The position numbers are program-made. A stretch of DNA of 64,000 nucleotides from Escherichia coli (lineage in GTDB: Bacteria > Pseudomonadota > Gammaproteobacteria > Enterobacterales > Enterobacteriaceae). Position 1 is the first letter of the stretch; each line of letters starts with the position of its first letter. The stretch lies in assembly GCF_003018255.1 (NCBI RefSeq), contig NZ_CP027440.1; one strand, given 5' to 3'. Positions 10,401-16,400 of this stretch are shown here, in pieces.

Positions 10401-13400
10401 GGGCGACCATCTCATTGCCCGAACAAGAAAGGTAGTTTTGCTTAAAGCCGGAATAGGTGTCGATGTTGCCCGTGGCCAGGTTCACCGACGCGTGCGACGT
10501 CTCTTCCACCGCACTAAGATACGCTTTTTGCAACGTTGGCCAGCCATATTCGGTGCCGATGACATTGGCTGGATGTGCGGCAAACAAACTGTGCAATGAG
10601 CTTTGGCTCGGAATATGACCTAAACCACACTCAGCCTGCATACTGCTATTCTGATCAAACAGCGCCCAGTCTTCGTTATTTTCCCGCACTGCTCCCAGTT
10701 CGTTGTCGGTTTCATCCGCCAGCCGTGGGCGTTTAAAGATATTATTCGCTTCAATAATGCCTAACATATGTCCCCACATCCGCGCTTTGTCGGAATCAGG
10801 GCTGGTGATCACCGTAAAAATAACGTCTTTCTCATCCGAGGCGGTAAAATCACTGCGCATTTTCGCGGTGATGTGTGTTTTCACCCCCACGCCGCCTGGC
10901 TGGGTCAGCGTCAGAGAGGCCTCTCCGTTAGCATCAGTGATCCCTTCATAGGTATGCGCGTCAACTTTGCGAACGTTACTGCCACCATCAATTTGTACCG
11001 GATGCGTCTCCCACGCAGCGTCAGTTTGATTCTTACGGTTAACACCGTCATCCAGATGCAGCGAAAAGTAGTAGTAAGCCAGCGGCTGATCGTTGTTCTT
11101 GCTATCGGTAATCGTCAGGCGTAAAGAAGCCTCTTCCCCCACCTTTACTTTCATCGCTTTTATCGTCGAATCATAACTGCCCGGCGTCAGTACCAGCTTC
11201 GGTTCAACATCGGGCGCTTCTTTATCGACACAGCTCACAATAAACGTCGTATCGTCCGGTTTTTGCGCTTCGCTGCGGTTCGAAACATCCGCCGCATGGT
11301 GCTGCCCGCTCATCCCCGCCAGTGATGACCAGTAGTAGTTACCCTGCATCGGCCAACCAGCCACATCCTGCACTGACGTTGGCACCACCGTCGCCAGCGC
11401 ACCGAACTGACGCATTCCGGGCAAAATGTCGCAATGTTTATCCGCACCACTCCAGGTAAAGGTGGACCAGGTTTCATTGTGATCGTTAACCGTACCGTCT
11501 TCATTATCGACTTCCGCCGCCAGTTTTGGTCGACTAAAAGTGTAATCACGGGCCTTCAGCGTATCGGGCATATGACCCCACATTGTGGCCTGCGGGACAT
11601 CCGGGCTGGTGAGGACGGTAAAGATCACTGCCGTTTCACTGGTCTGAGCAATACCCGCGAGGCTCGCGACCAACGGCGTTTTTACACCAGGGGCGTTGGC
11701 CTGGGTGACCGTAACCGTGGCAACACCATTCGCATCGGTAGTACCACGATATTCCGTCGCGGTGGTGGTTAATTCGGTCGTGCCCAGTTTTACCGGCGCA
11801 GTATTGTTCACTACACCCTGGCGGTTTTCAGCATCTTTGCGTTTGATAACAAAAGGAATATTCCCCACAACATTACCGACGCAATCTTTGGTGGTGACCG
11901 TTAACGTGATACTGCCGCCAACCGTCGTTTTCGCCGCACCGGAGGATTCGTCATAGCCCGCGGCGCTGACGGAAATAAGGTCACCCTGCGCGGGCGCAAT
12001 CTTCAGCGTCACTTTCTGATCGGCGAGGGTCAGAACACTTTCATAGGGATAGCCCGTCGAGGTAAGTAGATATAACAGCGGCATGGTCTGCTGGGGGTCT
12101 GGCTGCGCCCAGGCGATCAGCGAACGCCCGGCAAGGCCCTGTGCGCAAAATGAGCGATCTGCGACTGGCTGTGGGTCCAGTAAGGTGTCCGGCGTCGCGG
12201 CATCCGCCCAAACTAAAGATACTGTCGGTGGCGTTTGGTTTTCCCAACGTGGTGTGGCAATGATATCGCCTTCTCTGTCTTGCGGGTTGGTGACGAGCAA
12301 TTTAGAGACGCTAACATCCGCGCTGAATTCACTCGGTTTAGCGGTAAACGCTACCTCATGCGTCTTTGCAGGATCCAGAAAGACACTGCCCTGGTAGACG
12401 GGTATGCTGGCACTGTCGGCGGTGGGCACGGTACCGTTAAATTCGCCGACCGTATCTGAAGAGTCTTGCCATGCAGATTCTGCCCATGCCCCCCCAGGCA
12501 GCATTGCGCTTATCAGCAATGCGCAAAACACAAGGATTTTATTCAGGGTCAGGGACATGACAGAAACTCCACCGGTTGTTAAACGGACGCTTGTCGCATC
12601 AACATATTTTGCTTAATCCGGGATTAAGCAAAATATGCGGAAACAGCATTCCCTTGCGGGAATGCTGCTGAGTACGCGTTATTTGTGTTTGTAAATAATG
12701 TGAAGTTTGTACCCCTGTACCCCGTCGCCGTTGGTCGGGATGGTAAGAGCTTCTTTACCATCGCGCGCAGGGCCGTTAAGGTTGGTTCTGGCGTCTTCGT
12801 TGGTCGCAGGGATGACCAGATTGTTATTATCGAAGCTTGAGTTGACGATACCACCCGAGGTGCCGAGCTGTTGGCTGCTGCCAGAAAGTACCCAACGGAA
12901 GTCATAATTGGCGGTAACGTCAGCATCGGTATCCGCATCAAACTTGCCATTTTTGTTCTCATCCGAGTACAGTTTGGCCACGTAGGTTTTGCCAAGTTCG
13001 ATTGGCGTACTGCCGTTGATAAGGTTGATACTGGTACCATCAACAAAGATGGCGACTTTCAGGTTCTGGTTAACTACCGGCCCTGGCGCAACGTTGTCGC
13101 TGTCGCTTCCGCCGCCGCTGGCAGTGGAAATGTCATAAAGATGCAGCGCAGTCCCGACGTTTGGCGTACCGGTCTGCGTGGTCGGCGTAATTTCAATACC
13201 GATATAACGACCACGGTCGTCATCGGTAAGAGTGTAACTGGTCACCTTCGTTGCCAGCTCTTTCGGATCGCCCCCCTGAGCGTCCTTGTAGCTCATCCAG
13301 CGGATAGTATCGATAGTCTTTGCGTTATCGCCCAATCCCCCAAGATCCACGTCGCCTTCGGTATCACCAATTTCCCAACTTACGGTTAATTTATCACCCG

Positions 13401-16400
13401 AGTAAAGACGCTTGTCCGTTTCACTGCCTGTCGGGCGAGCGCCTTTTAGATCAGAAGTCAACGTTACATGGTCGGCATCTGTCGTAGCGCTTCCCCCTTC
13501 CGAATAGAGCCACGGAATGGTTCCCTGGAAAATATTGGTTTCGCCGCTGTCGACCCAGGCGCTTTCTTCCGCCAGCGCCACAGGTGCCACACAATAACCT
13601 GCCAGTGCCAGCGCCAATGCGATCCGGGTCAGACCGCGTCTTTTATCCTGCTTCATTGATGCTCTCCTTAATGAACCTTCAGCGACTGGCCGACTGGCCT
13701 TACGCCAATCTTATTTTTTGGTATACAGCACGCGTAAACCGTATCCCTGCAAGCCATCTCCCGCTTGTGCGCCATAGGTTTGCGCTGCTTCGCGGTTAGT
13801 GGCCGGAATCACAATGTCCTCATTGGAAGAGTTCGCCTGTGCACCCACTTCACCATTGATGCTCTTGCCGGTAAATTCCCACTTGTAGTCGTACTGCGCC
13901 ATCTCTTCGTCAGTCAGTTTTTCGACCTGCTGGAAGACACCGTCTTTATTGCTGTCACGCCACAAAACAAATCGATAAGTGTTGTTGAGCGGCAGCGGTT
14001 CTTTATCTTTACCTATCAGGTTGCTGGGTTTAGCTGCCCCCACACGATAGATAAATGCATTTAGCCCACCAATTTCTGCCCCGAGGAAAGTGACATCCAC
14101 ATAGTTACTGTCGTCGTAGGGCGCAGCTTTTGCTTTCCAGCGATAGGTGCCGGGTAAGGTACTGGAGAGGGTGACAGTGCCCTTTTCTTTATCTTGTTTA
14201 GCGATAAAAACGCAGGGGTTGTCGGTCGAGCAAGGCTTGTTGGTTAACGTCACTCGTTTGTCCTGCGCGTCGTAAAGCCGCGGCGTGAGGTTATCTTCCG
14301 GCAGCGCATCGCCATTGCGGTCGGTGTTATCGCCAAAGCTGTCGGTTACATCGAGATCCATCACCACACCATCAACGCCATCTGCCTGGGCGCTGGCTTC
14401 GTGGCTGTGGTTGTTCTCTTCCGGCACGTTCGCGATGTTATTAACAATCAACTCAATTTTACGGTCCTGCTGAACGGTGATTTCCACCACACCAGAGTTC
14501 TGTCGGTTGCCCTTTTCATCTTCCAGTGCCAGACGTACTCGCCAGGTATTGAGTTTTTCTTGTTCGGCTTTGTCAGAGCTGTACTGCCAGGCGGGCAGCA
14601 CCAGGTTCCAGTGGTTATTGTTACCCTCTGTCAGGGTATTCTCTTTGATAACCGGCATAACCAGCGTGCGGGCAGCATTGTTTTTCGCCTGCCATGACGC
14701 AGCGACAATTTTGTAGTGGTGGTTGATAAGCGCGTTAATGGTCCACTTACATTTTTCCAGCCCGACCGCCGCTTCAGGCGTATCTTTAATGACACACTCG
14801 GGGTGTTCGTTGGTGGCATCCGCTTTTAACCACAGGGTGACATCAAGCGGATCTTTTTCTTTGTATTCCAGAACAATAAAGTTATTACGCTCAACAAAAT
14901 CATGACGACTGCCCATCAACGAGTGAGCCGCTTTCACTTTATCGCTATCCAATTGATCTTTTAGCGGAACGCCGAACTGATAATTAAGAGTGGCATTAAT
15001 GCTGACATCGCTGTTATCTCCGGTCCCCGCTTTATAGTCCGCCCCAACGGTTAGTAATGGCACCGGTTGATAATTCAGTCCAAGTGTTACCGCGTAGGGA
15101 TCTTTCTCCAAATTATCCGTACCAAAAAGGGCAACTTCATCGCCGTAATATTGCTCGAAGACAACTTTGCCCCCCAGTTGCGGATAAGAAGGTAACCAGG
15201 CTTCGGCGCGAATATCCCAGCCGCGCGCAGGACGCTCCTCATAAAAATCGAAATCTTCGGAGTCTTTCCAGTCAGAAAGCGGATGATAATAGTTGCCAGA
15301 GAATTTTAAATAATCAGTCCACGCTTCGCCGCCTAAACCTAAACGGCGATGTCCTCGGGTAAAATCATAATCATAAAATATATTCCCGCCCAATAACCAT
15401 TCATTAAAATTATGTCTTACCCCAAGACCAATATTCCCGATTGTACGATCTTCTTTTCGCTGCGCAGAAAATTGACTGAAATAAACAGTGGTTTGATTAT
15501 CGTACCAGGGAACAAAATAATCGATGGAACTGCCATCCAGATCGCCGCCCTGGCCAATGGAGAGGTTCGAACGGACCTTACCGTAGGGAGAGAGAGTGTC
15601 TTCAATATAAGATTGTGCGGTTGAGGTGATTTGACTTTGCAGATAGCTTCTGGCCTGAGATTCCAGCGCCTCAGGGGTCAAGTTTTCAAACCCTTGCGTG
15701 GCGGAGTTGATGATGTAATCGGCTCCGCGCTCTTTCAGCGATTTACCCTTGTTGGTTTGTTCATCCTGCTGTGCTGCCTGGCTACCTAAATCAGGTAACG
15801 ATTCGTTTTGCTTAACATTTATCTCTGGTGCCGCGAAAGCAGCACCAGAGATAAATGTTAGAATAATACAGCGTTTCCATCGCAGCATGCACTTTCCCTG
15901 TGACAATGATACAGTCAAAAATAAGCTTTAATATTGTATCCCTGATTATTCAGAAAGGCATGTCATAAAGAATAAATATACTCTTAATTATTTAAATTAG
16001 TGATTTCACTCAATTACATTAGTTATTCCACTAATAACAGATTGTTTTACCATTCACATATTAAATATAAATGATAAAACAATATATTCACATGATATTA
16101 AGCAATAACAAATTCAACGCGTTTTTTAGATATTAAACCGTGCCCATGTTGGCAGAAATAATCCACAACACCACAAGCTTTTAACACTTGTAACGGCTGA
16201 TGACACTCAGGGCAAAGTGCCTGGACGGTAAAGTCTTTGTCGCAAGTTGCACAGTGGGCAGTCTCGCCATTGCGTTCGAGAGGGATTTTGCAGGTTGGAC
16301 AGTTGAGTGCCATAAATACTCCTCACGTGTTATTCGGTTTCCCTCTCCGTGTGGAAAGGGAAACCAGATAAGTGATTACTTACTTTTCTTGATATGCTTC

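Follow-up and report, generated by a model that had tools for sequence, protein, structure and literature searches.

The barrel-less partners of inverse autotransporters raise the question of how such proteins reach, or are retained on, the cell surface, a question which is sharpest for the Rat adhesins of 1800 to 3000 residues and which, as regards the export of ZirT partners, has been called a "Gordian knot" by Heinz et al. (PMC4943183). It is posed here by the sinH-sinI-ratA island of Escherichia coli, located between xseA and der within a 64,000-nucleotide stretch of contig NZ_CP027440.1, the whole of which is referred to below as the window. On the basis of open reading frames (ORFs), NCBIfam matches, and RefSeq annotation, the island consists of three minus-strand genes: sinH (iatB; positions 13711 to 15918), encoding an intimin-like inverse autotransporter of 735 residues; sinI (12679 to 13656), encoding a barrel-less, Sec-exported SinH partner of 325 residues; and a ratA-like gene (4504 to 12558), encoding a giant BIg-repeat adhesin of 2684 residues. 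Directly behind their signal peptides, SinI and RatA carry a common N-terminal tag of approximately 20 residues, and SinI as a whole is a mosaic composed of a signal peptide, this Rat-type tag, a variable linker, a ZirU-like immunoglobulin (Ig) domain, an acidic linker, and a SinH-type C-terminal domain. Coordinates of features in the window refer to its minus strand throughout.

The identity of each gene is well supported. SinI matched the NCBIfam "SinI family autotransporter-associated protein" model NF040711 with 333.4 bits (cutoff, 165), its residues 7 to 322 covering profile positions 2 to 299 of 299; SinH matched NF033423 with 1486 bits (cutoff, 999), and the giant protein matched NF011844 with 5883 bits (cutoff, 3870). 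The RefSeq annotation of 99.9%-identical E. coli genomes agrees with the sinI and sinH assignments, and the interval which the first-pass annotation had attributed to a SinI-like protein corresponds exactly to the sinI ORF. This gene lies directly downstream of sinH with a gap of 54 bp. The barrel region of SinH aligns with models of intimin, invasin, and YchO, and PF11924 is present on SinH orthologues. SinI yielded no match to a Pfam barrel and no significant Pfam domain of any kind, and its AlphaFold2 model consists of two soluble β-sandwiches. The longest sinH ORF begins at a TTG located ten codons 5′ of the ATG annotated in RefSeq (M11, window position 15888), the extension spanning positions 15889 to 15918; SinH residues are numbered here according to the 735-residue ORF from this TTG.

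The SinI tag comprises residues 30 to 50 (EESAWVDSGETNIFQGTIPW; 13507 to 13569), and that of RatA comprises residues 27 to 47 (12418 to 12480), immediately following a signal peptide formed by residues 1 to 26 (12481 to 12558). The motif may be written W-x5-(S)T-x2-[IFL]-[QNE]-G-[TS]-x-P and, in all SinI and RatA/RatB-type proteins examined, is found immediately behind the signal peptide. Across 31 SinI homologues, W34, T40, G45, and P48 are invariant (consensus, (G)NLKSGQWQxxSESTGTIQGTVPWI), while W30, Q31, N41, G42, T43, P45, and A47 are invariant across 14 Rat N termini (consensus, (A)LKSGTWQELxTSTDAINGTVPxAD). The N-terminal likeness between SinI and the giant protein had been pointed out in the first-pass annotation, and the strings quoted there are correct. 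That it might be due to chance, or to compositional bias in the vicinity of signal peptides, could be argued from the pairwise BLASTP comparison, in which the E value is a marginal 0.011 even with the signal peptide included. However, the mature 31-mers of SinI and RatA score 52 against a mean of 20 ± 4.4 for shuffled sequences (z = 7.3), the maximum among 5000 shuffles being 45, so that none attained the observed score. Furthermore, a SinI-motif hidden Markov model (HMM) built without the signal peptide detected every Rat N terminus at the same position with 10 to 30 bits, whereas the highest-scoring background ORF attained 3.4 bits; when applied to the 1300 ORFs contained in 21 loci, it matched no proteins other than SinI and Rat. 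Given also that the two families have their invariant residues at the same motif positions, and that the database-wide search described below returned the SinI and Rat families only, an origin of the likeness by chance is considered to be refuted, with next to no probability left to it. The best match to the SinI tag among all 2684 residues of RatA is the N terminus of RatA itself, all Rat genes of at least 20 loci carry the tag, and both RatA-type and RatB-type proteins of Salmonella are tag bearing.

The similarity is confined to the motif. When restricted to the tag, hhalign comparison of the SinI and Rat profiles gave a probability of 97.5% (E = 7e-12); beyond residue 50, no similarity was detected (hhalign probability, 3 to 9%), and the two proteins are unrelated there. 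An initial alignment which retained the signal peptides extended over 99 columns and would have been compatible with a common N-terminal domain; upon trimming, only the motif and a weak "DTEGD" match remained, and the domain was rejected. This second short match pairs SinI residues 96 to 100 ("GDTEGD"; 13357 to 13371) with RatA residues 94 to 98 ("DxEGD"; 12265 to 12279); its residues are invariant in both families, although on its own it is not significant (hhalign probability, 9%). At the nucleotide level, no similarity is apparent between the 5′ ends of sinI and ratA (score of 14 versus 13.5 ± 2.3 for shuffles), which excludes recent gene conversion between them and indicates that the tag has been maintained at the protein level. 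An N-glycosylation sequon, as suggested by the NGT of Rat proteins, was discarded as a common feature because most SinI proteins harbor QGT instead.

When the motif profile was compared with 1.84 billion representative proteins, 61 matches were obtained at an E value of ≤1e-3. Among the 56 newly returned proteins, 48 were recognized as SinI or RatA by phmmer; the 5 other matches were members of the SinI and Rat families that had already been found. The remaining 8 of the 56, which phmmer did not match, were six multistretch repeat proteins and two short fragments with a Rat-type motif. In SinI and Rat family members the match lies at residues 6 to 71, and nearly always at approximately residues 23 to 65. 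As judged from these searches, the tag is exclusive to the SinI and Rat families, and it behaves as a short linear motif as opposed to a shared end domain. The tag, its exclusivity, and its linear-motif behavior appear to be new and are not mentioned in the mechanistic SinH papers examined; the locus, the SinI family, and the C-terminal paralogy detailed below are already known.

The C-terminal domain of SinI (residues 195 to 325; 12682 to 13074), which is modeled with a predicted local distance difference test (pLDDT) score of 81 to 96, resembles the last domain of the SinH passenger (residues 617 to 735; 13714 to 14070). SinI residues 218 to 325 share 37% identity with SinH residues 641 to 735 (BLASTP E = 2e-13), the Smith-Waterman score being 149 versus 28 ± 5 for shuffled controls (z = 24); profiles of the two families, spanning SinI residues 197 to 325 and SinH residues 617 to 735, align with an hhalign probability of 99.5% (E = 2.3e-23), and the NCBIfam models of SinI and SinH cross-match in both directions. 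A search of 5.8 billion proteins with the C-domain profile returned fragments of SinH and SinI only. On this evidence, the SinI C-domain is a paralogue of the last passenger domain of SinH, a relationship which underlies the NCBI family name, which Heinz et al. (2016) credit to Kingsley et al. (2003) (PMC4943183), and which was restated for E. coli IatB by Goh et al. in 2019 (PMC6714894). The SinH domain is roughly that known as the vaccine domain SinH-3, for which boundaries of 602 to 724 have been given (PMC9937491). The resemblance had also been recorded in the first-pass annotation, and its quoted strings (TY..L..D.NK.G.F, VIPATN, and DG.QGY.L..Y.K) are all present. Its description of SinI as a mosaic is fair, since one module is common with each neighbor and a third, ZirU-like module derives from neither, while its statement that SinI "mimics" its neighbors is inappropriate, the C-domain being a SinH paralogue and the N-terminal likeness a short linear motif, not an end domain.

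Within this module, the same annotation had remarked upon a calcium-binding, dockerin- or EF-hand-like loop, a suggestion which is upheld in part. The SinH loop, D655-S-N-K-D-G-V-F-Q-Q-V-E666 (13921 to 13956), is invariant in 18 orthologues at D655, N657, D659, F662, Q663, and E666, corresponding to EF-loop positions 1, 3, 5, 8, 9, and 12. The equivalent SinI loop, D232 to T243 (DENKNGKFDADT; 12928 to 12963), is conserved in the family at positions 1, 3, 5, and 8; position 12 is Glu in 23 of 31 family members but Thr in the SinI of the window. The PROSITE pattern PS00018 was not matched by SinI, SinH, or RatA, owing to the Phe at loop position 8, whereas the relaxed pattern DxNxDGx[hydrophobic][DQ]xxE was matched by 15 of 18 SinH orthologues, including that of the window, and by 12 of 31 SinI family members, the SinI of the window not being among them. 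Calcium binding by a single EF-hand-like loop is plausible, while identity with dockerin was rejected, as there is one loop in a β-sandwich and no duplicated pair.

The remaining segments of SinI may be described in turn. Its signal peptide (residues 1 to 29; 13570 to 13656), as delineated by eye from an n-region (KQDKRRGL), a hydrophobic core, and an A-x-A motif with predicted cleavage at ALA|EE, is conserved as strongly as the folded domains, with A19, G20, C22, P25, and A29 invariant in 31 homologues; a lipobox at the invariant Cys22 was rejected upon inspection, as "AGYC" departs from the consensus. The tag is followed by a hydrophilic linker (residues 51 to 62; 13471 to 13506) in which the conservation of SinI falls to its lowest value (0.51) and which is modeled with a pLDDT of <50. 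Domain 1 (residues 63 to 175; 13132 to 13470) is predicted to form a seven-stranded Ig/fibronectin type III (FN3)-like sandwich, its strands having a pLDDT of 65 to 94, and is ZirU-like insofar as residues 69 to 210 match the NCBIfam ZirU_fam model (E = 1e-7) with 32 bits, far under the family cutoff of 100. Fold searches with domain 1 retrieved only generic Ig/FN3 matches, sequence searches for SinI relatives in the PDB found none, and homology of domain 1 to the other passenger domains of SinH was unsupported at the profile level. No segment of SinI is more conserved than the acidic, Gly-rich interdomain linker (residues 176 to 194, GGGSDSDNVAPGPVV; 13075 to 13131; consensus, GGGSDDDDIPEGPVV), which has a mean conservation of 0.82 versus approximately 0.67 for the domains and in which little or no variation is seen at G181 to G183, D185, D187, G192, P193, and V194. 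Such conservation is unusual for a linker.

The linkage of the three genes is also well maintained. The order sinH-sinI-rat was preserved in all 20 loci identified in species-representative genomes of five genera (Escherichia, Pseudocitrobacter, Citrobacter, Superficieibacter, and Leminorella), and the triad is likewise retained in more distant loci beyond these 20. Between der/yfgJ and xseA, the island contains sinH, sinI, and ratA only; in Leminorella, two tandem rat genes are present, each of which encodes the tag. Among 5426 complete E. coli genomes, 1700 (approximately 31%) match at least part of a 3.6-kb sinI-plus-sinH query (window positions 12400 to 16000, which include the first ~160 bases of ratA). 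A scan for promoters and terminators between sinH, sinI, and ratA revealed nothing exceeding shuffle expectation; sinH and sinI are reported to be cotranscribed (PMC12525524).

Considerable variation in the triad was encountered as well. E. coli Rb-50 (locus L025, 4740 to 18355; L028, NZ_AP025682.1, 1372035 to 1389615) harbors two complete tandem sinH-sinI-rat triads flanking the zinc ribbon gene yfgJ, the extra triad belonging to a third allelic type and encoding a Rat protein of only 784 residues. Disruption of triad genes is frequent: in E. coli E69 (L019, 7325 to 10312), a gap of ~730 bp interrupts sinH; in another locus (L003, 11472 to 17896), ratA is broken into two parts, the first of 254 codons; and in two metagenome contigs sinI is divided into ORFs of 120 and 140 residues, with the middle domain missing (L023, 2644 to 3618). 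Owing to differing numbers of BIg21/InvE_AD repeats, the length of Rat ranges from 784 to ~3013 residues among the window ratA and the Rat genes of loci L003 to L021, while an N-terminal portion of ~230 residues is constant, as is the tag, across Rat proteins of differing length. Downstream, in the conserved core, the window harbors pbpC (770 residues) and the alpha-2-macroglobulin gene yfhM (1653 residues) at positions 25499 to 32773; both are unrelated to the SinI findings.

Structural modeling provided a further perspective on the tag. In the AlphaFold monomer model of SinI, the first 62 residues have a pLDDT of <50 and the tag is disordered (pLDDT, 26 to 35), whereas domain 1 and the C-domain form complete sandwiches and the tag is not docked on the C-domain of its own chain. 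A fusion of SinH residues 352 to 735, SinI residues 30 to 325, and RatA residues 27 to 230, joined by G30 linkers and modeled with a paired alignment of 16 genomes, yielded an ordered SinI tag, with a pLDDT of ≥50 for residues 32 to 50 and of 79 for the core block, while the RatA tag had a pLDDT of 68 to 71 and β-bridges occurred at equivalent motif positions in both tags. This ordering hints that, in the model, the tag is docked or has at any rate adopted a defined conformation.

It is, therefore, proposed, as a reading for and against which we hold the evidence to be evenly poised, that SinI is a ZirU-like partner of SinH, and that the tag is a system-specific recognition peptide through which SinH, as the most likely reader, would recognize both barrel-less proteins for export or tethering. 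According to this proposal, SinI and Rat, which have no barrel of their own, would leave the cytoplasm via Sec, whereupon both tags would engage one common receptor, most likely SinH; such engagement would lead either to translocation across the outer membrane or to tethering to the surface-exposed SinH passenger. The third of the three unrelated modules of SinI, a copy of the terminal SinH passenger domain with a probable calcium-binding loop, may provide SinI with the distal binding surface of SinH. That the tag binds SinH, and that this binding drives export or attachment, are steps which we infer. SinH and Rat-like proteins have previously been proposed to constitute an inverse autotransporter-based two-partner system (PMC4943183), and SinI and Rat are treated in the published model as parallel SinH substrates, not with SinI as an adaptor or decoy. 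A more specific version, in which the tag would be the first defined substrate recognition signal of type Ve trans-secretion or assembly and SinI an adaptor coupling Rat adhesins to SinH, is advanced tentatively and is, on balance, doubtful.

Several observations weigh against recognition of the tag by SinH. IatB/SinH is reported to be surface displayed and to promote biofilm formation in the absence of the downstream gene (PMC6714894). The fusion model was interpreted from pLDDT values and β-bridges, without coordinates, so that the docking partner of the tags is not readable from it; the construct did not include the periplasmic tail and barrel of SinH, and the higher pLDDT might reflect an intramotif hairpin or the removal of the signal peptide. 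ZirS and ZirU were not among the motif matches in the 1.84 billion proteins, their own sequences not having been inspected directly, and, as judged by its distribution, the tag is not a general signal of inverse autotransporter substrates.

Allelic variation bears on the same issue. SinI and Rat fall into at least three deep allelic types with type-specific tag features, namely, EF[QN]G in type A, [TA]I[QN]G in type B, and [NQ][IL]NG in type C. When paired within a genome, the SinI and Rat tags score higher than in permuted pairings (BLOSUM score of 51.7 versus 41.6 ± 2.3). This nominally significant likeness represents approximately one independent event and carries little weight, being confounded by divergence of the genes as a whole and by the division of the entire sinI/rat 5′ block into two or three deep allelic types. 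Moreover, no SinH residues were found to segregate with tag type A versus B, and the SinH proteins of type B Escherichia loci are as near to type A SinH as those of type A loci are among themselves. As SinH does not covary with tag type, it must, if it is the receptor, read the invariant core only. Both this and the limits of the pairwise tag likeness likewise count against the proposal.

An alternative explanation of the tag is that it acts in cis without any partner in the system, for instance by capping the N terminus or forming a hairpin, by determining processing, or by offering a handle to a general periplasmic chaperone, having arisen either from a common ancestral 5′ end or from a need in the handling of secreted β-rich proteins. 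The absence of SinH covariation and the function of SinH without its downstream gene, as detailed above, are in keeping with such a role. In RatA, the tag leads directly into ADSAS-PVYQGS, a segment of high conservation, and into an N-terminal domain whose fold is predicted with confidence, the pLDDT of the tag itself being intermediate, and the β-bridges of the fusion model, which involve positions W+1/W+2 and the F/I position, could represent an intramotif hairpin. In SinI, however, the variable linker sets the tag off from domain 1, and the monomer model shows the tag as disordered; the SinI-Rat similarity also stops abruptly at the motif, and the occurrence of the tag in two otherwise unrelated proteins which are always encoded adjacently, and nowhere else in the 1.84 billion, is difficult to fit to a general handling signal. 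We consider a purely cis-acting role to be improbable.

A second alternative, which spells out the adaptor idea of the first-pass annotation, is a chain in which the tag of SinI plugs into the C-domain of SinH, and the C-domain of SinI in turn accepts the tag of Rat, giving a surface-located SinH-SinI-Rat assembly loosely reminiscent of donor strand pilus assembly. SinI is the sole protein to possess both modules, each of which is private to the system, and both tags became ordered together in a fusion which holds exactly two C-domains. In the discriminating Escherichia loci, the sole SinH positions which track tag type (641, 670, and 720) all lie in the C-domain, a weak signal which may be no more than the trace of recombination with a breakpoint close to the 3′ end of sinH and which is contradicted by a Citrobacter locus (L011) that joins a type A-like SinH C-domain to type B tags. 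In the two-triad strain Rb-50, the SinH copies are most divergent at residues 11 to 60 (30% identity) and, among folded parts, in the C-domain (57 to 64%, compared to 72 to 90% for the barrel). However, the tag is not docked on the C-domain of SinI in the monomer model, both SinI domains are predicted to be complete with no strand missing, Salmonella and Leminorella have three tag-bearing proteins per two C-domains, and the chain does not explain how SinI and a 2684-residue Rat would cross the outer membrane. We regard this chain, too, as unlikely. The suggestion in the first-pass annotation that SinI is an adaptor or decoy tying the three gene products together is compatible with the invariant triad, the exclusivity of the motif, and the ordering of the tags in the fusion model, while SinH does not covary with tag type.

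The decoy variant of that suggestion would have SinI compete either with Rat, over the receptor of the tag, or with SinH, over the host or partner ligand bound by the C-domain, thereby tuning adhesin display or masking the SinH-3 epitope. It draws on the possession by SinI of both the tag of Rat and the C-domain of SinH, and on the finding that ZirTSU, to which the system is closest among those studied, acts as an antivirulence modulator (PMC2270342). However, the C-domains share only about 37% identity, and the retention of SinI in every intact triad and its duplication along with its triad suit a structural component equally well; a decoy or regulator is, in our estimation, very improbable.

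The tag could reveal how these barrel-less proteins are selected for export or attachment, and its restriction to the two barrel-less proteins of the triad renders the question directly testable by mutating or transplanting 20 residues or by employing them as a peptide bait. SinH contributes to colonization by extraintestinal pathogenic E. coli and Salmonella, and SinH-3 is a vaccine antigen (PMC9937491) of which SinI bears a paralogue. If the tag is merely cis structural, the finding shrinks to an annotation refinement of a known island.

Comparison with established systems places these features in context. In two-partner secretion (TPS; type Vb), as would hold for SinI and Rat under the present proposal, an N-terminal element behind the signal peptide is conserved among the substrates of a co-encoded outer membrane transporter. 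The TPS domain, however, is a folded β-helix of ~250 residues with NPNL and NPNGI motifs, whereas the SinI/Rat element is linear and comprises ~20 residues; TpsB is an Omp85/POTRA protein, whereas the barrel of SinH is of the 12-stranded inverse autotransporter type. Pfam detected no TPS or hemagglutination activity domain in SinI, which is not a member of the TpsA family. The N-terminal extensions of chaperone-usher subunits and the N22 segment of the curli protein CsgA are similarly short, conserved mature N termini which are unstructured alone and act by binding a subunit or channel. In contrast to those systems, chaperone, usher, and CsgG/E genes are missing from the island, the domains of SinI are predicted to be complete and not strand deficient, and the tag does not exhibit an alternating hydrophobic pattern. 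Identity as a donor strand subunit was set aside in view of the seven-stranded domain 1, the lack of tag self-docking, and the absence of chaperone and usher genes.

Closer parallels are offered by two inverse autotransporter systems. In the ZirT/ZirS/ZirU system of Salmonella, an inverse autotransporter barrel gene is likewise followed by genes whose Ig-like products have no barrel, depend on Sec, and are related to the passenger of the barrel protein, and the secretion of ZirS depends on ZirT (PMC2270342), a dependence on the barrel protein which is here proposed for SinI; the systems differ in that the ZirU match of SinI attains 32 bits against a cutoff of 100 and in that giant BIg-repeat adhesins belong to the SinH system. 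The closest counterparts are SinH, SinI, and RatA-RatB of the Salmonella CS54 island and the IatB ("ila") locus of E. coli, which represent the same locus, with the same families (above the NCBIfam cutoffs), the same gene order, and the same position between xseA and der. In the literature on CS54, the N-terminal region of Rat proteins was described as "highly divergent" (PMC4943183), whereas the present analysis identifies in it a conserved tag, which in the SinI and RatA of the window is of type A (AE-SAW...EF[QN]G) and not of the Salmonella-like type B (NLKSGQWQ...I[QN]G).

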